IMG/VR virus record: IMGVR_UViG_3300020045_010465
Coordinates: 1-46,092 of that record
From: a virus
Lineage: Duplodnaviria; Caudoviricetes
Strand: one strand, 5' to 3'
Length of the DNA: 46,092 bases
A model generated the notes under the pieces. That model was not told the origin of the DNA. It was given only the letters and a program-made list of their open reading frames with translations, and did not search any database. The position numbers and the translations under genes are program-made. Each line of letters begins with the position of its first letter. The stretch's first letter is position 1. Positions 30,711 through 41,042 of the stretch are shown here, piece after piece.

Positions 30711-31313
30711 TTATGATTTTAAATGATTCAAATAAGCTTTATAAGATTCGAAAATAGCCTGTATTTGTTTAAATTCATCAGTACCTCTTTTTGTTGAGTA
30801 TTCTTCTGTTGAGTTAAAAAAATACTGCCACTCTTCAATAGTTTTCTTTTTACACCCTATTTGTATTTTATCTCCTAGAATAGAATGACTCCATTTGCAA
30901 AATTGGGGCATACAAGCTAATTCTTTATTTTCTGCATTACTCAGGTCTGCGCCACTCAGGTCTGCATTACTCAGGTCTGCATTACTCAGGTTTGCGTATC
31001 TCAGGTTTGCGTATCTCAGGTCTGCATTACTCAGGTCTGCATTACTCAGGTTTGCGTATCTCAGGTTTGCGTATCTCAGGTTTGCGTATCTCAGGTCTGC
31101 ATTACTCAGGTCTGCATTACTCAGGTTTGCGTATCTCAGGTTTGCGTATCTCAGGTCTGCATTACTCAGGTCTGCATTACTCAGGTTTGCGTATCTCAGG
31201 TCTGCGTCGACTTCAATAGCCTCTTTTAATGTTGTTAAAATTGAATTATTATCCGATTCGTATTCAAATAATAAATTTCCAAAAATTGATTTAATCTGTA
31301 GCTTTGTTTTCAT
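30711..31313 (-). CDS. pentapeptide repeat protein
   Basis: A(D/N)L(S/R)x repeats; C-terminal IQIGC....EEW domain. Confidence 0.9.
   Translation of the reverse strand: MKTKLQIKSIFGNLLFEYESDNNSILTTLKEAIEVDADLRYANLSNADLSNADLRYANLRYANLSNADLSNADLRYANLRYANLRYANLSNADLSNADLRYANLRYANLSNADLSNADLSGADLSNAENKELACMPQFCKWSHSILGDKIQIGCKKKTIEEWQYFFNSTEEYSTKRGTDEFKQIQAIFESYKAYLNHLKS
30931..31200. repeat. 18 x 15-bp tandem repeat (two unit types) encoding the pentapeptides
   Basis: units tctgcattactcagg and tttgcgtatctcagg, plus one variant tctgcgccactcagg. Confidence 0.95.
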
Positions 31314-32042: not shown

Positions 32043-32084
32043 AATTGTAATACATTTGTAGCGTGTAGCCGATAGTTAGTGGCA
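32043..32084. other. terminal hairpin-less (attI-like) site of left array
   Basis: GTTAGTGGCA at 32075 matches TGCCACTAAC at 32674; no hairpin beyond it. Confidence 0.55.
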
Positions 32085-32673: not shown

Positions 32674-32813
32674 TGCCACTAACAATCGCTATATTTCAGC
32701 GTTGTGATTTGGCTTAATTTAATGTTTTGTTTCTTTTTTTTTAATTTGTCCTTATCCGAAGAACGGTTTTGTGTCAGTCCACGCCGAAATTATAGCGATG
32801 GGCGTTATAAGCC
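32674..32813. repeat. attC-like hairpin site L1
   Basis: AAC-a-ATCGCTATATTTCAGCGT...ACGCCGAAATTATAGCGAT-gggc-GTT; 120-nt spacer. Confidence 0.85.
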
Positions 32814-33044: not shown

Positions 33045-33146
33045 GGCTTATAACAGTGGTTTGGCAAAATACCGCCACAAGCCTTTGTGCTAAATTTTAA
33101 CATTATGCAAGGCGGTACTTCGCCAAGCCAGATAACGTTAGTGTTC
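33045..33146. repeat. attC-like hairpin site L2
   Basis: TGGTTTGGCAAAATACCGCC...GGCGGTACTTCGCCAAGCCA; 82-nt spacer. Confidence 0.85.
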
Positions 33147-33608
33147 AGTTAAACACGTATTCGTTAAACTACAATTTTCAAAAAAATAATAGACGTTTTG
33201 TAATTCATGTACGTATTTTATCTCTTTAAATTCATTAACTTCAATAATGAATTCTTGAATATCTTCGTTAGGCATGTGAATTTTAAAATCGCCTTTTTTA
33301 AAAACTTTACTAGCTTGTTGTTCTTGAGGGTCACTGGTGAAATTGCTTGAAAATTTAAATTTATAAAACCATTCCTGCATTAATGGAATAGGCATAATTT
33401 CATTAATTGAATAAAAAATATCAATTCTATTATTCAACCCTATTTTGATATTATTTGAAAGGTCTGTTATTATAGAACTAATTGTTCCTACTTCTCTATG
33501 ATTTCCGTTGTAATGTATAAAATTTCCAATGCGTAAATTAGCAACCGAAACACTAACAACCGTTTGTAGTGATTGAGCATCGTATTGAATTTTGTTATCT
33601 GTTTTCAT
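33138..33608 (-). CDS. cassette L3 protein (LRIGN family), start codon inside hairpin loop
   Basis: ANLRIGN...HELQNVYY; the GTT core encodes Val18. Confidence 0.65.
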   Translation of the reverse strand: MKTDNKIQYDAQSLQTVVSVSVANLRIGNFIHYNGNHREVGTISSIITDLSNNIKIGLNNRIDIFYSINEIMPIPLMQEWFYKFKFSSNFTSDPQEQQASKVFKKGDFKIHMPNEDIQEFIIEVNEFKEIKYVHELQNVYYFFENCSLTNTCLTEH

Positions 33609-33682
33609 CTGTTTTTATTTGTGTTTAATTTATAAAATTAGCTTATTTTTTCAACCACTACAAGCGGCAAGCGTTAGCATCA
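33548..33682. repeat. attC-like hairpin site L3
   Basis: CCGTTTGTAGTGATTGA...TCAACCACTACAAGCGG; 115-nt spacer. Confidence 0.85.
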
Positions 33683-33691
33683 ATGCTACGT

Positions 33692-34039
33692 TTACTGGTA
33701 ATCGATGATTTCTGCTATTAACTCAGCTTTTGTGAAAATCACTTTTCTATCACTTGGATACCATAATTTTGGTAATAGCGAATTAATCTTTTTAAAATCA
33801 ATGTTTGCATCAAGAATTTTTGCTATTCTTTCTTGGTCTTCATCCATATTTTCAGAAAATCTATCTTCATCAAATACTCTTTCTGCAATAGTTTCTCCGT
33901 TTAGAAATCCAATATTTTCTAAATCACATTCGTAGGCTTCAACTGTAAAATCATCAGTTTGTTCTACTAAAAATTCATATTCAAGATGTTCTGCTATATC
34001 TTGAACTTCGCTAAAAAATCTGTCGTCAATTGCGTACAT
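33692..34039 (-). CDS. cassette L4 acidic hypothetical protein
   Basis: 115 aa, Asp/Glu-rich. Confidence 0.65.
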   Translation of the reverse strand: MYAIDDRFFSEVQDIAEHLEYEFLVEQTDDFTVEAYECDLENIGFLNGETIAERVFDEDRFSENMDEDQERIAKILDANIDFKKINSLLPKLWYPSDRKVIFTKAELIAEIIDYQ

Positions 34040-34064
34040 AAAAATCTGTTTTTAAGAACCGCAC

Positions 34065-34202
34065 TAATACTAACACAGGTTTGCAAAAATGGCAAGTTCA
34101 GGTTTAATTTATAGTTTGTTTTGTGTCTGTAATGTTTTGGCAAAATCGAAAATTAAGGCTTGCTTTTTTGCCACTTCTGCAAGCCACGAACCGTTAAGCA
34201 CA
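34065..34202. repeat. attC-like hairpin site L4
   Basis: GGTTTGCAAAAATGGCAA...TTGCCACTTCTGCAAGCC; 118-nt spacer. Confidence 0.85.
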
Positions 34203-34205
34203 AGT

Positions 34206-34655
34206 TTAAGAGCGACCGTCAAAAACGACAATCATACTATCTTTCGTGCCACTTTGTTCTTTTCCTTTTGCGTTTAATGGTATGTAGAAATTTCCATTTT
34301 TATCTAACTTACCAAATTTTATTCTGCCTTTTAAAAATTCAATTTCAGTTGCGTTTGGTTTGATCCATTCATGAAATAATTTTGTACTTGTAGATACTGG
34401 AATAAGGAAAACACAAACTTTTCCTTTTTTCATTTCTTCAACTCCTTTTTTTACAAATTCCTCTTTTAGTTTTTGGCTATAAGGTGGATTTACAAAATTT
34501 GAGTTTCCCCATTCAATTTTTAATCCATCGTTTAAAATTTCACCTTCATTATAAGGGCAAGGATCAAAATCGAAATTAAAACGTTTATTCAATTCCTCGT
34601 ATAATTTTGGAGGAGTTGCATAATTATCATCGTTATTTATGTGAATTTTTTTCAT
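34206..34655 (-). CDS. cassette L5 phage DNA N6-adenine methyltransferase (Dam-like, short type)
   Basis: ATP, F.FDFDPCP, FVNPPYS, LIP..T.T..FH and GRIKF motifs. Confidence 0.85.
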   Translation of the reverse strand: MKKIHINNDDNYATPPKLYEELNKRFNFDFDPCPYNEGEILNDGLKIEWGNSNFVNPPYSQKLKEEFVKKGVEEMKKGKVCVFLIPVSTSTKLFHEWIKPNATEIEFLKGRIKFGKLDKNGNFYIPLNAKGKEQSGTKDSMIVVFDGRS

Positions 34656-34677
34656 ACTAAATTTTAAATTAAAAACC

Positions 34678-34764
34678 TGTGCTTAACAAGTGTTTTGCTC
34701 AATTGTGCCGAAATTAGTTTGCGGTTAGGCACAACTGAAGCAAAGCACTCGAACGTTATCAGGA
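34678..34764. repeat. attC-like hairpin site L5
   Basis: AGTGTTTTGCTCAATTGTGCC...GGCACAACTGAAGCAAAGCACT; 67-nt spacer. Confidence 0.85.
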
Positions 34765-34778
34765 ATACTAAGATTCCG

Positions 34779-35015
34779 TTATTTATGAAATTTAGATTTT
34801 GGCTTGTCGAATATTTGCTCCTGAATAGGTTCGGGTTCATTAAAGCATTTTAATTTTAACGCTTCATTTTTGAAGTAATCGTTTTCTCGTTTTTCTTTCA
34901 TTTCTTCTGGAGTTACAATAATAATTCCTCTTTCTTTTTCAAGAACGCTATCAATTGCACTTTGTAAACAAGTTCTTCCGTGATCTACGTGACCAATTAT
35001 CATTATTTTTTTCAT
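34779..35015 (-). CDS. cassette L6 small protein with EF-Tu-like G1 motif
   Basis: IIGHVDHGRT at N-terminus; arms GTTATCAGGA/TCCTGATAAC. Confidence 0.6.
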   Translation of the reverse strand: MKKIMIIGHVDHGRTCLQSAIDSVLEKERGIIIVTPEEMKEKRENDYFKNEALKLKCFNEPEPIQEQIFDKPKSKFHK

Positions 35016-35044
35016 AACATATTTGTTTTTTAATTAATTCGTAC

Positions 35045-35182
35045 TCCTGATAACAGCGTGTTGTTTTCAGGCTTGGATTATTTTTTGTTTTTTTAATTGG
35101 GGCGAATTCGCCATAATTAGAATCCTTGTTGTTATAAGTGATAATTCACGCCCGAAAAGCAACACGCGAACCGTTATGCATC
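35045..35182. repeat. attC-like hairpin site L6
   Basis: GCGTGTTGTTTTCAGGC...GCCCGAAAAGCAACACGC; 118-nt spacer. Confidence 0.85.
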
Positions 35183-35350
35183 AGCTTGGTTGGAACGGCT
35201 AAATATTTCCTTAATACCATTTTGAACTTTACAAAATGTGCATTTTACTACCTGAATACTTCTACTGTATTTTGATTGTTTAGTAATAACAGTCACGGTA
35301 TTTTTAGAACCGCAATAACTACAATCTACTTGTTGTTTAATTTCTGCCAT
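35174..35350 (-). CDS. cassette L7 58-aa zinc-ribbon protein (below ORF-track cutoff)
   Basis: MAEIKQQVDCSYCGSK...KCTFCKVQNG...NQADA*, TAA stop in TAAC core. Confidence 0.65.
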   Translation of the reverse strand: MAEIKQQVDCSYCGSKNTVTVITKQSKYSRSIQVVKCTFCKVQNGIKEIFSRSNQADA

Positions 35351-35371
35351 AATTTGTGATTTAAAAAGCCG

Positions 35372-35510
35372 AACGGCTAACAGCGTGTTGTTTTCAGGCT
35401 TGGATTAGTTGTTTTTTGAATAGTCAAGGATTTCTTGACAGTTGGTTTTGTACTCGTTGTTATCGGTGATTATTAACGCCCGAAAAGCAACACGCAAAAC
35501 GTTACCCATG
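35372..35510. repeat. attC-like hairpin site L7
   Basis: same stem as L6; 119-nt spacer; abuts the terS stop codon. Confidence 0.85.
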
Positions 35511-35842
35511 ACTAGCTTCCAAGAACTGCTTAAAAATATCTTGCTGACCGGAATCAGTTTCTTTTTGTTCAACTAATTTGCCTCGGTCCTTGAAACTAAA
35601 TCCGAAATGTTTAGAAAGCTCATTGATTTCCTTTATCATTTTTTCTCGAATAGTAACGTAACCGGATACATTTGTGGCACCGCCTTTGAAAGTTTGTATC
35701 AAACCACCATGAAATCCTTTATTTCTAATTTCATTTTCGGATTTAGTTTCAAGGACCGAGGCAAATTAGTTGAACAAAAAGAAACTGATTCCAGTCAGCA
35801 AGATATTTTTAAGCAGTTCTTAGAAGCTAGTCATGGGTAACG
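35500..35842. repeat. 108-bp inverted repeat (35500-35607 / 35735-35842), 2 mismatches, 127-nt spacer
   Basis: direct comparison; both copies encode FGFSFKDRGKL...FLEASHG*. Confidence 0.95.
35502..35740 (-). pseudogene. 5'-truncated terminase small subunit, P27-family-like (C-terminal ~78 aa)
   Basis: ENEIRNKGFHGGLIQTFKGGATNVSGY...LSKHFGFSFKDRGKL; the terS-like frame is interrupted at the fold-back junction; context upstream of HK97-type terL. Confidence 0.6.
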
Positions 35843-35972
35843 GTTCGCTAGTATGATTTCGGCTTGATAAAATGCAAGACCTTATTTCGGATTAAAAAAA
35901 GTAAAAACAAATACAAAAATTAATAACCTAAAGACCGATACAAAAGCTGAAATATACTAGCTGTTAGGGAAT
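35832..35972. repeat. attC-like hairpin site R1
   Basis: GCTAGTATGATTTCGGCTT...AAGCTGAAATATACTAGC; 121-nt spacer. Confidence 0.85.
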
Positions 35973-35994
35973 CGGCTTTATAACACCAAATATC

Positions 35995-36255
35995 ATGGAC
36001 GTAAGGAAAAAAGCAGTTGATTTAATAAAGAAATTTGACGTAAAGTATTACTACAAATTAACTAAAGGACAATTACCAGTATCAATGCATAATTCAGTTA
36101 TCAAAGAATGTATTTTAAATTCTATTAACGAAATAATAACTGAATTATCAAAAGTGCATTATAGAACTGATGTGACTGATATTTTAGAAAATTGGCAAGA
36201 AGTAAAAGTAATAATTGAGCAGGATTTTGACCAGTTATACCAAGCTGTTCCCTAA
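35995..36255 (+). CDS. cassette R1 hypothetical protein
   Basis: paralog of 32090-32422; TAA stop in TAAC core. Confidence 0.65.
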   Translation: MDVRKKAVDLIKKFDVKYYYKLTKGQLPVSMHNSVIKECILNSINEIITELSKVHYRTDVTDILENWQEVKVIIEQDFDQLYQAVP

Positions 36256-36384
36256 CGGCGGATGCTACACGATGGCTGGGACAAGCACACATCCAGACTT
36301 CGGATAATGACAGATTATAAAAGTGCAAAACCAACTTTAAATTTAACCCGAAACCCAGCTATTGTGTAGCATATGTTACCAGTA
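36247..36384. repeat. attC-like hairpin site R2
   Basis: ATGCTACACGATGGCTGGG...CCCAGCTATTGTGTAGCAT; 118-nt spacer. Confidence 0.85.
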
Positions 36385-36403
36385 GTGTTTTATACTAAAT
36401 ATT

Positions 36404-36592
36404 ATGAAAGAAGTAAGAGCAAATTGTTATGTAGAAGTTTTATGTACTTGCCCTAATTGTGGCTATGGATTAGACGTTTTGGATGAAGTAAGAGAGGTTA
36501 TGGATGACGACCACAGAGCAAGCGGAATAGATGTAGAAGTTACTTGTGAAGATTGCAAAGAAACGTTTTTAGTTACCGATGTCGATTTTTAA
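36404..36592 (+). CDS. cassette R2 zinc-ribbon protein
   Basis: CPNC...CEDC. Confidence 0.7.
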   Translation: MKEVRANCYVEVLCTCPNCGYGLDVLDEVREVMDDDHRASGIDVEVTCEDCKETFLVTDVDF

Positions 36593-36595
36593 CAT

Positions 36596-36734
36596 TACTG
36601 GTAACGGTCTTTTGCTAGTGGAAGTGGCTTGAATTAAGCACCGATGCCAGCAAGAAAAGACCAGTACTTAAGTAATCCTTGATAGTTCAAACACAAAACC
36701 ATCTAGCCATTTTTACTAGCAAATGTTAGTAGCT
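36596..36734. repeat. attC-like hairpin site R3
   Basis: TTTGCTAGTGGAAGTGGCT...AGCCATTTTTACTAGCAAA; 119-nt spacer. Confidence 0.85.
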
Positions 36735-36779
36735 GGACGGATTAATTAAACAAAAATTAACTTATAAAAATTAAATATT

Positions 36780-37031
36780 ATGTTTTGGAATAGAAAAGAA
36801 AAAGTAGTTATAGGGAGTCTTGGTCCGTTATTGATTCCTCCAATTCCCGCAAAAAGAGAATTTGAAACAATGTTGGAGATATTGAAAGATGCTGAAAAGT
36901 ATGATAATGGAAATGATATTGAAGTTAGAAATGCTTTACTTACAACTTTATGTGAACACATAGAAGTTTTTAAAGCCAAAAAACAAGAAGCACACAGGGA
37001 TGGAAGTATTTCTCTAAAAGCAGATTCGTAG
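36780..37031 (+). CDS. cassette R3 hypothetical protein
   Basis: fills the cassette between arms GTTAGTAGC/GCTACTAAC. Confidence 0.6.
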   Translation: MFWNRKEKVVIGSLGPLLIPPIPAKREFETMLEILKDAEKYDNGNDIEVRNALLTTLCEHIEVFKAKKQEAHRDGSISLKADS

Positions 37032-37034
37032 TCT

Positions 37035-37176
37035 TGCTACTAACGTTCCCTTGCTAAACGAGGTTAGGGATAAAATAAAAAACAGATTTTCGATTAATAA
37101 CTAATACCAACAAAAATGAAACAGACCACAGATAATGCCCAAATGCCCGAATCTTGTTTAGCAAGTGTTGGCAGTA
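37035..37176. repeat. attC-like hairpin site R4
   Basis: CTTGCTAAACGAGGTT...AATCTTGTTTAGCAAG; 122-nt spacer. Confidence 0.85.
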
Positions 37177-37388
37177 GTTATTCTCTTTATCAGGGTACTG
37201 AATGGAACGATGAAAAATTTGATTTATTAATAGTAGTTAATTTTGAATTAAAAAAGATAAACAGGATTGACCTTGAAAATAAAGTAACTAAAATAATTGA
37301 TATTCCTGAAACAGGTATTCCAGTTCATTTTAAAAAAATAAGTAAATCAAAATTTAACAAATTGGTTGAGAAGTACCTATTTGTATAA
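37116..37388 (+). CDS. cassette R4 hypothetical protein, start codon inside hairpin loop
   Basis: GTT core at 37167 encodes Val18. Confidence 0.6.
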   Translation: MKQTTDNAQMPESCLASVGSSYSLYQGTEWNDEKFDLLIVVNFELKKINRIDLENKVTKIIDIPETGIPVHFKKISKSKFNKLVEKYLFV

Positions 37389-37389
37389 T

Positions 37390-37530
37390 TACTGCCAACG
37401 CTCCCGTGCTTGTGTACAGTAGCGTACAAGTACAAGACAGTCTTAAACTTCGGCAAACAGTTTAAAAAATTGCCAAAACTTAAAATTAATCACCAAGCAA
37501 AGCTATTGACACAAACACGTGTTATAAGAA
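37390..37530. repeat. attC-like hairpin site R5
   Basis: CGTGCTTGTGTACAGTAGC...GCTATTGACACAAACACG; 121-nt spacer. Confidence 0.85.
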
Positions 37531-37553
37531 GTAGCGGGTTTTAAAACAAAAAT

Positions 37554-37763
37554 ATGATAGAAATTGTAAACGTAAAAGACAGATTACCAAATGTAGAATG
37601 TGGTAGTTATTTAGTTTATGCTCCTGAAAGTTTCCCTAAAAATAGTAGGTGGTTAGTTGCGGAGTATTATGATGATGTTAAAGGTTTTTATAGCGAAAGT
37701 TCTGAAAACTTTTTAGAAGATGTTACGCATTGGTGCGAATTGCCTAAAGAACCGCTAACGTAG
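37554..37763 (+). CDS. cassette R5 DUF551-like protein
   Basis: VKDRLP...YLV...VTHWCELP.EP. Confidence 0.7.
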   Translation: MIEIVNVKDRLPNVECGSYLVYAPESFPKNSRWLVAEYYDDVKGFYSESSENFLEDVTHWCELPKEPLT

Positions 37764-37767
37764 CTAT

Positions 37768-37909
37768 TTCTTATAACGTTTTGCGGCTATACGAGGTTGT
37801 TGCCGAATTAAAAACAGACCTCACAAATACAAACTAATACTTAAAATTATGACTGATATTTCAAAAAATACCGAATTGCAACAATCTTGTATAACCGCTG
37901 TTATAGGCA
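37768..37909. repeat. attC-like hairpin site R6
   Basis: GCGGCTATACGAGGTTGTTGC...GCAACAATCTTGTATAACCGC; 122-nt spacer. Confidence 0.85.
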
Positions 37910-38085
37910 GTCCTAATGAGTTAGAGCCTGTTTTAGCATTTATAAATCACATTGGTGAATTAGGGTTATCTGAATGGTACGAGGTGGTTTATTATGCCGA
38001 TAAATGGTATTCTTATGCAGGAAGTAAAACATTTGAAGATGGCGAAAAAGTCATTAGATGGAAGTACGCTAAGGATTGCCTATAA
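37849..38085 (+). CDS. cassette R6 hypothetical protein, start codon inside hairpin loop
   Basis: GTT core at 37900 encodes Val18; TAA stop in TAAC core. Confidence 0.65.
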   Translation: MTDISKNTELQQSCITAVIGSPNELEPVLAFINHIGELGLSEWYEVVYYADKWYSYAGSKTFEDGEKVIRWKYAKDCL

Positions 38086-38138
38086 CGTTCCCATTTATTC
38101 AACCCACAAAACCACCAACAAAACTAACACTTAAGCTT
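38072..38138. other. attI-like terminal site between last cassette and integrase
   Basis: AGGATTGCCTATAAC arm followed by non-palindromic sequence up to the integrase ATG. Confidence 0.6.
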
Positions 38139-38939
38139 ATGAATTCCGCAAAGTACATCCAAGACTATGAGAGAGATTTGAGATTCATTCACTTCTCTAT
38201 TGAAACGATAAAAAACTACAGTAGTCAAATAAAGTTATTCCTGGCATATTTTAAAGAAAAAGACAGTCCTAAACATATTTCTGCAGATGAAATCAAGGAT
38301 TATCTGTTGAATGCTAAAGAAGTCAATTCGCAAAATGCAATGCATTCTGCAATTAAAAAGTTTTACATTTTGACGATCAAGCAAAACAGGAAATTCGAAT
38401 ACATAACGTATGCCAAAAAAGAAAAGAAAATTCCACTTGTAATTGATATGGATGAGTTGGTTTTGATGATTGATAAAATCGAAAACAAAAAACACAAAGC
38501 GATAATTGCTTTAACATCTTCGGTTGGATTGCGAGTTTCTGAAGTTTTGAATTTAAAGTTGGAGCATATTAGCACACCGCTGATGCAAATTAGAATCATT
38601 GGTGCCAAAGGCAAAAAAGACCGTATAGTGCCACTAACTGAAAAGGTCAGAGAAATTATTCGCATTTACTATGTGGAATATCTGCCAAAAGAATATTTAT
38701 TTAATGGTCAAGATAAGCCACAATATTCACGTGGAAGCTGTAATCAGGTGGTTAAAAAATGCCTTGGAAAAAAATACCACATGCACACGTTACGGCATAG
38801 TGCAGCAACCGGTTTATTTGAAAAAGGAACAGATCTTAAATTAATAGGTGATTTATTAGGGCAAACATCATTAAAAACGACTTCAATTTATGCGCATACG
38901 TCGAGCAAAAAATTAAAAAGTTTGCCTTTTGGTATTTAA
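38139..38939 (+). CDS. tyrosine recombinase (integron-integrase-like N-terminal SAM domain, no I2 insertion)
   Basis: S..TIKNY...IK.FL.YF N-terminus; GLRVSE, KG.KDR, HTLRHS, LLGQ, TT.IYAH; ATG at 38139 (MNSAKY) preferred over TTG at 38076. Confidence 0.9.
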   Translation: MNSAKYIQDYERDLRFIHFSIETIKNYSSQIKLFLAYFKEKDSPKHISADEIKDYLLNAKEVNSQNAMHSAIKKFYILTIKQNRKFEYITYAKKEKKIPLVIDMDELVLMIDKIENKKHKAIIALTSSVGLRVSEVLNLKLEHISTPLMQIRIIGAKGKKDRIVPLTEKVREIIRIYYVEYLPKEYLFNGQDKPQYSRGSCNQVVKKCLGKKYHMHTLRHSAATGLFEKGTDLKLIGDLLGQTSLKTTSIYAHTSSKKLKSLPFGI

Positions 38940-38999: not shown

Positions 39000-39221
39000 T
39001 CAAGGCAATAATTCTGAAACATCAATATTTAAAGCTTTACAAATTTTAAAAAGGGATCCAATAGTAGTATTGATTTCGCCACGTTCAATTCTTCCTATTT
39101 GGTTTATTGGAATGTTGGCATCATGAGAAAGTGTGGCTTGCGAAAGATGCTTAGACAATCGTTTTTCTCTAAGTTTTTGCCCAACATTTTTGATAAATAT
39201 TTTTTCGCCTTTTTCTAACAC
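39000..39221 (-). CDS. XRE-family HTH regulator
   Basis: G.KLREKR....LSQ..L.....I....IGRIERGE.N.T...L..I..AL. Confidence 0.85.
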   Translation of the reverse strand: MLEKGEKIFIKNVGQKLREKRLSKHLSQATLSHDANIPINQIGRIERGEINTTIGSLFKICKALNIDVSELLP

Positions 39222-39311: not shown

Positions 39312-41042
39312 ATGAAACCAACACAAAAACAGCTTGAATCCGTTCCTTTTCAGTATGCAAATGACGTGCGTACTGGTAAAATTATAGTTGGAAAACGCAT
39401 CAAGCAAGCCGTGAAGCGTTTTTACTCCTGGGTAGAAAATGCTGAAATAGATGGTTTTATTTTGGACCATGAAAAAGGAATGCGCATCCTGAGCTTCTTC
39501 CCTACTTTTTTAAACCACACCATAGGTAAACTAGCGGGAAAACCTTTCGTTTTGGCACCATTCCAGCAATTCACCATGTATAATATTTTTGGTTGGATAA
39601 ATGCAAAAACAGGATTCCGCAGAATCAACACTGTTTACGATAAAAGAGCTAAAAAAAACGGGAAAACCGCTGAAATGGCGGGACTTGCATTATACGCCCT
39701 TTCTTTCGATTTAGAAATGGAAGCGCAAGTGTATGTTGGGGCCACAAAGGAAGAGCAAGCGCGTATTTGCTGGAAACAGGCGAAAATGTACATTGAAAGT
39801 CCGGTGGCGAATCCTGCCTTGCGTAAAATGGGGTTTTACTGCCTTCAAAAGATAATCGGATTCAAAAATACAGGATCTACCATGATGCCATTGGGTGGTG
39901 ATTCAAAAACACAGGATGGTATCAACTGCCATGTGGGAATAATAGACGAATACCACGCCCATAAAGATGATTCGGTAAAAGAAAACCTTGAATCATCTAC
40001 CGTACAAAGAGCGCAGCCGTTAATTTACCAAATCACAACCGCAGGTGCAAATGTGCAATCTGCCTGCAAAAACTATGAAGATTCAGTTATTGAAGTTTTG
40101 GAAGGTCGAAATATAGATCACTCGCTTTGGATAATGATTCACGACATAGACCAGGAAGATTTAGAAACGCCTGAAAGTTGGGAAAACAAGGATTTATGGA
40201 TAAAAGCAAATCCGCTTTTGGGAAATGGTTTGGCTTTAGAAGGAATCGAAAAGGAATTTGTAAAAGCATTAAATCAGCCTTCTAAAATTCGAAATTTCAA
40301 GACTAAAAACTTGAATATGTGGGTAGATCAGCAGTTCGACTGGATTCAAACAGAGATTTGGAATAAAAACAAAGTCGATGCAATCCCGATGGAAAAATTC
40401 AAAACATTAGGTTCTTATGCGGGTTTAGATTTATCAAAAACACGAGATTTAACAGCTTTTGGAGCGTTGTCAGAGCCGGATGAAAATGATGATCGATTTG
40501 TTAAAATTTGGTTTTTTATGCCAAAAGATACAATTATAGTTCGATCTAAAGAGGATAGAATACCATATCAATATTGGGCTGATAAAGGGTATATAATCGC
40601 TACACCTGGAAATGTAGTTGATTATAATATTGTAGAAGATACGATAAGAAAAGAATGGCCGTCGCTAAACATTATTAGAATGGGTTATGACACATATAAT
40701 GCGACACAAATCACTCAAAACCTTCATGAAGATGGCTATGTAGTATCAGAATTTAGTCAAGCAATAGGAACGATTTCAACGCCTACAAAAGAGTTTGAAA
40801 GATTAGTACTTAAAGGCAATATAAAACACGATGGAAATCCGGTGTTGTCATGGATGCTAGCTTCATGTGATATTTATACTGATGCTAATTTAAATATCAA
40901 AGTTCACAAAGGTCGTTCCTCAATCAATGGTCGCCGTGTCGATGGTATCATTGCTCTAATAATAGCTTTAGGCGAATCTATGTCAACGCCTGAATCAAAC
41001 GAAAGTATCTACAACCGGGAAGGTACAGAATTCACTTGCTAA
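39312..41042 (+). CDS. terL: terminase large subunit, Terminase_1/HK97-like (phage B)
   Basis: AKKNGKT Walker A, IIDEYH Walker B, ITTAG, GLDLS...DLTA, RVDGIIA. Confidence 0.95.
   Translation: MKPTQKQLESVPFQYANDVRTGKIIVGKRIKQAVKRFYSWVENAEIDGFILDHEKGMRILSFFPTFLNHTIGKLAGKPFVLAPFQQFTMYNIFGWINAKTGFRRINTVYDKRAKKNGKTAEMAGLALYALSFDLEMEAQVYVGATKEEQARICWKQAKMYIESPVANPALRKMGFYCLQKIIGFKNTGSTMMPLGGDSKTQDGINCHVGIIDEYHAHKDDSVKENLESSTVQRAQPLIYQITTAGANVQSACKNYEDSVIEVLEGRNIDHSLWIMIHDIDQEDLETPESWENKDLWIKANPLLGNGLALEGIEKEFVKALNQPSKIRNFKTKNLNMWVDQQFDWIQTEIWNKNKVDAIPMEKFKTLGSYAGLDLSKTRDLTAFGALSEPDENDDRFVKIWFFMPKDTIIVRSKEDRIPYQYWADKGYIIATPGNVVDYNIVEDTIRKEWPSLNIIRMGYDTYNATQITQNLHEDGYVVSEFSQAIGTISTPTKEFERLVLKGNIKHDGNPVLSWMLASCDIYTDANLNIKVHKGRSSINGRRVDGIIALIIALGESMSTPESNESIYNREGTEFTC

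Follow-up and report, generated by a model that had tools for sequence, protein, structure and literature searches.

The window analysed here is an entire contig of 46,092 nt, on which the genes of two unrelated phages lie side by side. Bases 1–32 kb, read on the minus strand, carry the terS, terL, portal, protease and endolysin genes of one phage (here called phage A); 35.7–46 kb, read on the plus strand, carry the recombinase, terL (39312..41042, plus strand), portal and capsid genes of another (phage B). The two meet at a fold-back within the terS gene of phage B, on either side of which stands an array of hairpins and small genes. The left one, on the minus strand, continues into phage A; the right one, on the plus strand, lies together with a tyrosine recombinase gene between terS and terL of phage B, an order (terS–array–recombinase–terL) also found in loci L001, L002, L259, L261, L262 and L272. 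A small helix-turn-helix gene (39000-39221, minus strand) sits between recombinase and terL; L001 and L002 also contain this DNA. In the phage A part, a 15-nt tandem repeat at 30873-31262 encodes a pentapeptide-repeat protein (30711-31313).

A hairpin detector reported 12 hairpins with scores of 29–36, the best score elsewhere in the window being 22.8; a thirteenth (34071..34196), unlisted at the listing cut-off of 18, was located by eye. None of 100 Markov shuffles of the region 31.9–38.25 kb reached 28 (maximum 27.4). The first-pass annotation had stated that all hairpins start with AACG on the coding strand, and all 13 indeed read YAACG there. Seven belong to the left array and six to the right, each array starting with a hairpin and ending with a gene plus a bare TAAC. 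Reading the minus strand away from terS, the first left hairpin (35378..35504) heads an ORF of 58 aa (35350-35174) with a weak zinc-ribbon match, the second (35051..35176) an ORF at 35015-34779, the third (34684..34758) a Dam-type DNA methyltransferase gene (34655-34206; PF05869, E 3.5e-18), the fourth, which is the one located by eye, an ORF at 34039-33692, the sixth (33051..33140) an ORF at 33002-32805, and the seventh (32680..32807) two ORFs (32685-32425 and 32422-32090); the ORF of the fifth unit (33608-33138) begins within its hairpin (33554..33676). The terminal TAAC of this array (32075..32078, minus strand) is followed by phage A early genes, without hairpin or recombinase, and has the same position in a phage A relative (L279). 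On the plus strand, the first three right hairpins (35838..35966, 36253..36378 and 36602..36728) head ORFs at 35995-36255, 36404-36592 and 36780-37031, respectively, and the fifth (37396..37524) heads an ORF with a DUF551 domain (37554-37763). The fourth (37041..37170) and the sixth (37774..37903) each contain the start of their ORF (37116-37388 and 37849-38085), and the ORF of the sixth ends at the TAA of the junction that follows. Throughout 32–38 kb the GC content is 29–34%. The genes are flanked by inverted repeats (4.9 of 6 positions matching, as opposed to 2.1 after shuffling); those of the first left cassette (35378-35504, 35176) do not match, unlike most others. Rfam gave no match within 31.5–39 kb at E up to 1, and a sigma-70 promoter scan of L017 returned 11 hits where 10.6 are expected by chance, with a consensus that does not cover promoters of Bacteroidota. 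A wider survey gave 558 hairpins in 177 of 359 sequences.

Together the terS copies make up an inverted repeat whose arms, of 128 nt each (35480-35607 and 35735-35862), are separated by 127 nt. The minus arm holds the 3′ half of terS (35502..35738; phrog_83, E 1.6e-7; 93% to the intact terS of L003/L017), whose stop codon supplies the TAA of the TAAC junction; the plus arm, joined to it via the fold-back, holds the last 106 nt (35735..35840); the 5′ half is missing from the contig. Two G>A differences set the right copy apart from the left one; among five aligned sequences both occur in the right copy only, and none of the three aligned relatives has them. As claimed in the first-pass annotation, the two ends diverge into different hairpins. 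Both read ...GGGTAACG and then run into unlike hairpins, the left one on the minus strand at 35504 (...CATGGGTAACG followed by TTTTGCGTG), the right one on the plus strand at 35838 (...CATGGGTAACG followed by GTTCGCTAG).

Whether this doubling is biological is another matter. The contig is probably a chimera joining phages A and B, because it combines two unrelated packaging modules, lacks the 5′ half of the phage B terS, and because relatives of phage A (L279, L280 and L318) have a small array of their own 3′ of the lysis genes, with neither terS nor recombinase in the stretches examined. The doubled terS end is probably a fold-back assembly join between two phage B alleles, the left of which runs into phage A; the first left cassette, with its non-matching repeats, may be the place where the phage B head of the left array switches to a phage A tail. 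At the joint, an inversion is combined with a deletion and an overlap of a few bases. More than 85% of the chimeras arising in multiple displacement amplification (MDA; PMC1855051) are of this form, which would be relevant here if the sample had been amplified. The alternative is a real contig, in which phages A and B had formed a cointegrate by array recombination, with an inversion in terS. It would account for the presence of the same hairpin family in both phage types and for the two differences among the 106 positions shared by the terS arms, which are not expected from the folding back of a single molecule alone. Against it stand the absence of a whole phage B terS, the head-to-head arrangement of two packaging modules, a joint of the form typical of MDA chimeras (PMC1855051), and the 58 identical bases past the joint, over which an assembler could have crossed between alleles. 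A cointegrate is therefore considered unlikely.

Reads of the source sample were sought in 24 runs, none of which contained more than 0.13 of the window's words; the source reads were not among them. Mapping of four runs, none of them the contig's source, gave no cover over 35584-35727 and no piece across the fold-back. Contigs of four wastewater runs cover, within 34000-38300, hairpins and single cassettes at high summed depth but not the phage backbone, which suggests a shared cassette pool. The left end of the contig terminates in TAACG and had been considered as the head of phage A's own array; this was dropped, as its relative L279 continues there without a hairpin, and a pattern scan following up this end gave 18 stretches, one of which matched the window.

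The first-pass annotation had also taken the two terS ends as evidence within the window that array content varies at one site. With the contig probably chimeric, this evidence is weak; the variation behind terS is nonetheless real in other genomes. Among 22 terS loci, TAACG follows the gene in 5 (4 distinct sequences; 3 scored as hairpins there) and is absent in 17, so that the window's two continuations and the four of its relatives make six distinct ones. In L259, on the same contig as L003/L017, terS and recombinase are separated by just one unit, in which the hairpin precedes the gene. The 16-nt probe proposed for checking this claim in other sequences found six stretches in viral contigs, one of which was terS.

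Regarding the question which gene a hairpin belongs to, other genomes speak plainly. The hairpins of the window match 63 deposited phage records, 60 of which are Flavobacterium phages. The cultured, virulent Mumin and Lillamy phages (L247-L258) have arrays of 7–13 detected hairpins, several of which head DNA methyltransferase genes; 12 regions were retrieved and 9 analysed, three being omitted since their gene tables duplicated another. Compared to Mumin6-1, Mumin6-3 lacks 506 nt; the loss begins at the TAAC of the hairpin preceding gp008 and reaches the next TAAC, which stays; gp008 is thus lost together with its 5′ hairpin while the following hairpin is kept. Six genes occur in more than one context in the nine cultured genomes: five keep the 5′ hairpin while the 3′ one has changed, one has changed both, and none keeps only the 3′ hairpin. 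In these genomes one hairpin type heads two unrelated genes. L001 and L037, whose recombinases are 94% and 50% identical to that of the window, have in common a 324-nt block (99.7% identity) which extends from one hairpin start to the next.

A wider comparison of 447 distinct hairpin contexts gave 106 pairs of hairpins at least 90% identical, of which 32 share only the flank on the GTT side, none only that on the AAC side, 6 both and 68 neither. The 32 pairs include 8 of the phage type (6 independent units) and 22 which were set aside because their hairpin is the end of one type of IS91-like element. In a first test of co-segregation, conducted on gene bodies, most matches were distant homologs or duplicates, and a single phage case was clear. 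The overlap of ORFs and hairpins was counted in 174 distinct units from loci not on a manually compiled chromosomal list: 48 of 173 ORFs start in the 5′ hairpin, none runs into the 3′ hairpin, and 28 have the junction TAA as stop codon. The assignment of each hairpin to the gene downstream, as the first-pass annotation had it, is thus borne out by the Mumin deletion, the Mumin genes, the L001/L037 block and the flank pairs, and its test in other genomes came out in favour of the downstream ORF. A cassette in these phages consists of the hairpin's AAC, the hairpin and the gene, up to the next YAAC. The linkage is not permanent, because 68 of the 106 pairs share neither flank and one of the six Mumin genes has changed both hairpins.

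The classical arrangement, with the hairpin belonging to the upstream gene and exchange taking place at the GTT end of the coding strand, is very hard to reconcile with these data: linkage to the upstream gene only was seen in none of the 106 pairs and none of the six Mumin genes, the downstream hairpin survives the 506-nt deletion, and both arrays of the window open with a hairpin and close with a gene. What can be said for it is that some chromosomal arrays with these hairpins are classical and that the gene-flanking inverted repeats fit both models.

The first-pass annotation had placed the exchange at AAC and had taken the divergence behind TAACG to mark the crossover. A position within AAC holds; the G does not take part, being the hairpin's own first base, conserved in 537 of 558, rather than one shared at junctions. 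In four pairs of loci (L070/L106, L135/L153, L041/L057 and L088/L089) a shared gene end continues with a base other than G at the recombinase-side site of one and with the G of a hairpin in the other, from which it follows that the exchange lies within AAC. The Y of YAAC belongs to the upstream unit, because it can pair with the R of GTTR on the other side of the gene in 210 of 218 units, as against 180 for pairing within the hairpin; where only one of the two pairings fits, it is the one across the gene in 35 units and the one within the hairpin in 5. The junctions fit cleavage at AA/C (G/TT on the other strand), the alignments bracketing the AAC triplet rather than the exact bond.

The strand with AACG folds better in 344 of 437 hairpins (the opposite strand in 84) and closes the terminal box in 179 cases, as compared to 18. 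On the top strand, T is found in 92% of the hairpins at the spacing which canonical attC sites would predict for an L″-like position. In integrons the recombining strand is the bottom strand (PMC8946536, PMC5371416), and the published bottom strands of the aadA7 and PH101 attC sites start with TAACG and end with TGTTA (PMC9892861, Table S3). As the coding strand of the phage arrays has this terminal signature of attC bottom strands and the better fold, the phage genes are inverted compared with those of classical cassettes and run in the direction of the phage operon, towards the recombinase. The inversion surmised from the window alone recurs in the viral units surveyed: 152 of 153 clear ones have their ORF on the strand equivalent to an attC bottom strand, 132 of 133 in IMG/VR and 20 of 20 in cultured phages. 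The count is 38 of 38 in metagenome contigs and 16 of 26 in contigs of bacterial genomes (all counts refer to clear units, 12 unclear ones having been excluded overall), and some chromosomal arrays with the same hairpin type have classical orientation. Phage structural matches among the long ORFs scanned were found at none of the six loci with classical orientation and at two of eight with phage orientation (L173 and L180), the other six being at most candidate prophages.

At the recombinase end of the right array, a TAAC is followed by sequence which does not form a hairpin (38083..38100, plus strand), 56 nt before the ATG of the recombinase gene (38139). A YAAC is present 44–57 nt before the recombinase ATG in all of 67 recombinase loci, hand-picked for having upstream sequence, and at 55–57 nt in 63 of them, and is followed by a conserved non-hairpin motif; this constant site would be attI-like in function. 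Nothing constant lies 3′ of the TAAC of terS, unlike at the recombinase end. In the four pairs of loci named above, the gene end which adjoins the constant site in one phage precedes extra cassettes in the other; in L088/L089 two cassettes are in swapped order and a third is added beside the constant site. The extra cassettes are taken to be gains, although losses in the partner would produce the same picture. As a constant attI-like site adjoins the recombinase, the terS junction probably represents the older, distal end of the array and not, as had been proposed, its site of insertion.

It could still be argued that new cassettes are inserted directly behind the stop codon of terS, close to the upstream promoter. 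Six different TAACG continuations have been seen at this place, in the window and its relatives, promoter-proximal entry would suit expression, and any hairpin could serve as target, as attC x attC reactions occur in integrons. Yet the conserved site with its fixed spacing is found at the recombinase end, two phages with terS, array and recombinase (L002 and L272) show no hairpin immediately 3′ of terS, the four pairs of loci differ in what lies between a gene end and the constant site, and all nine Mumin and Lillamy genomes have identical first and second units at the upstream end and vary downstream of them. Entry behind terS is accordingly regarded as improbable.

Some chromosomal hairpin arrays contain IS91-like elements, which encode a tyrosine recombinase and a Y2 transposase (L190, L193-L196, L233, in L195 after the Y2 transposase, L224 and L246); those of L190-L196 and L233 end in a constant 87-nt hairpin-like site. 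This constant hairpin was considered as a chromosomal attI and rejected, as it follows the IS91-like transposase; the arrangement suggests that the elements mimic or target the hairpin sites of arrays.

The recombinase (38139..38939, plus strand; 266 aa) consists of a Phage_int_SAM_4 and a Phage_integrase domain, without the insertion typical of IntI. It is Xer-like; the best NCBIfam model is that of archaeal XerA, every match being below cut-off, and with the TIGR02249 model it scores 115.8 where the cut-off is 265. Its catalytic domain is shorter by about 48 residues, with 40 residues where VchIntI4 (PDB 2A3V) has 88. A glutamine (38862-38864) replaces the second catalytic histidine, which is kept in 31 of 32 aligned sequences; the copy in the window may be impaired, unless the substitution is a sequencing error rather than a real loss. 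A search found 1,822 homologs, and among deposited phages 11 records match at E <1e-30, all from Cellulophaga or Polaribacter. At this threshold no close homolog was found in the records of the Mumin and Lillamy phages; because matches are limited to those 11 records, the arrays of Mumin vary without a close homolog on board.

Alternatively, the recombinase might be a bystander, with similar hairpins serving as substrates for homologous or illegitimate recombination that shuffles the units. Variation in phages with no close homolog found, the 68 of 106 hairpin pairs without a common flank and the catalytic substitution in the window would agree with this. It is nevertheless quite improbable, since unlike hairpins are joined via no more than 3–7 shared bases, at one fixed end, the polarity of the hairpins relative to the recombinase is constant in phage loci, as is the spacing of the constant site, and folding is biased to one strand. 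It appears likely that the adjacent recombinase performs cassette exchange. The explanation given good, if not overwhelming, confidence is a phage cassette array of genes with a preceding attC-like hairpin and AAC junctions, on which the recombinase would act on the folded single strand, cassettes entering at the constant site. The folded strand would be cleaved at AA/C, new cassettes would be inserted at the attI-like site upstream of the recombinase gene, and excision would take place between adjacent hairpins; the loss of a far-end cassette would leave differing hairpins behind terS, and phages without the enzyme would borrow a recombinase in trans.

The array resembles integrons in its single-gene units between imperfect palindromes with YAAC…GTTR ends, in the inverted repeats flanking the genes, in the better folding of one strand, in exchange within AAC (G/TT on the other strand) and in having, at the edge of the array, a constant site from which the recombinase gene points away. 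It differs from them in that the recombinase has 266 aa, falls below the TIGR02249 cut-off and lacks about 48 residues present in the catalytic domain of IntI4, that the phage genes occupy the bottom strand and are preceded by their hairpin, that the hairpin stem has a 5-against-1 asymmetric loop beside the R box, and that the array lies in a terS–terL operon. By these features it would be integron-like while failing two defining ones, the IntI insertion and the gene orientation.

Clusters of attC sites without integrase (CALINs) have been described in phages, including Polaribacter phage P12002L (Qi et al. 2023, PMC9892861). This phage of Flavobacteriaceae is similar in having attC-like sites and DNA methyltransferase cassettes; its attC1 is a short hairpin of the type found in the window, its published bottom strand is the coding strand, and it gave no verified recombinant with IntI1 (our detector scores it at 22, below the usual cut-off). 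In contrast to the present arrays, the CALINs as presented in the main account of Qi et al. have no cognate recombinase named and no systematic inversion, “divergent” attC directions being put down to mosaicism. The left array, which ends in phage A without a recombinase, might be taken for a CALIN, but its head is a probable misjoin. In Bacteroidales, the rAID-1 clusters (Ross et al., bioRxiv 10.1101/471110) consist of a XerD-like recombinase and a low-GC gene array with integron-like intergenic repeats; they are defined by a recombinase >44% identical to BF9343_RS08045 and at least two co-directional genes 3′ of it. Compared by description, both systems are combinations of recombinase and repeat-containing array in Bacteroidota, the chromosomal loci L207 and L212 have a recombinase followed by co-oriented cassettes with the present hairpin type, and the GC content of the window's arrays is within the 41% limit of rAID-1 cargo. 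The rAID recombinase, however, is 5′ of its cargo of immunity genes, while the array of the window is upstream of the recombinase, lies in a phage and carries methylases and small unknown genes. Nilsson et al. (PMC7077304) noted methyltransferase differences in these phages and associated the absence of one such enzyme with reduced plating efficiency on one host, their account making no use of the word integron, and Cury et al. described inverted integrases, not inverted genes. A literature search with most subscription journals outside its coverage found no paper on inverted cassettes with such a recombinase.

If the enzyme is active, single-strand recombination of cassettes would not need the IntI insertion, and tools requiring IntI or a canonical attC would miss a widespread gene-exchange system of phages. 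That phage and chromosomal arrays are oriented in opposite ways is also relevant to how cassettes come into being, a question still open. The cultured Mumin and Lillamy phages, with their precise gains and losses of cassettes, make the system directly testable. As a tentative view, held as conceivable rather than probable, phages of Bacteroidota may run an integron class of their own, in which a Xer-like enzyme without the IntI insertion acts on folded single strands and a hairpin family common to phages and hosts is used with opposite cassette orientation, a cassette from a host thus being antisense once in a phage array, and the reverse; virulent phages lacking the enzyme may, with the enzyme provided in trans, tune their host range by gain and loss of methylase cassettes.
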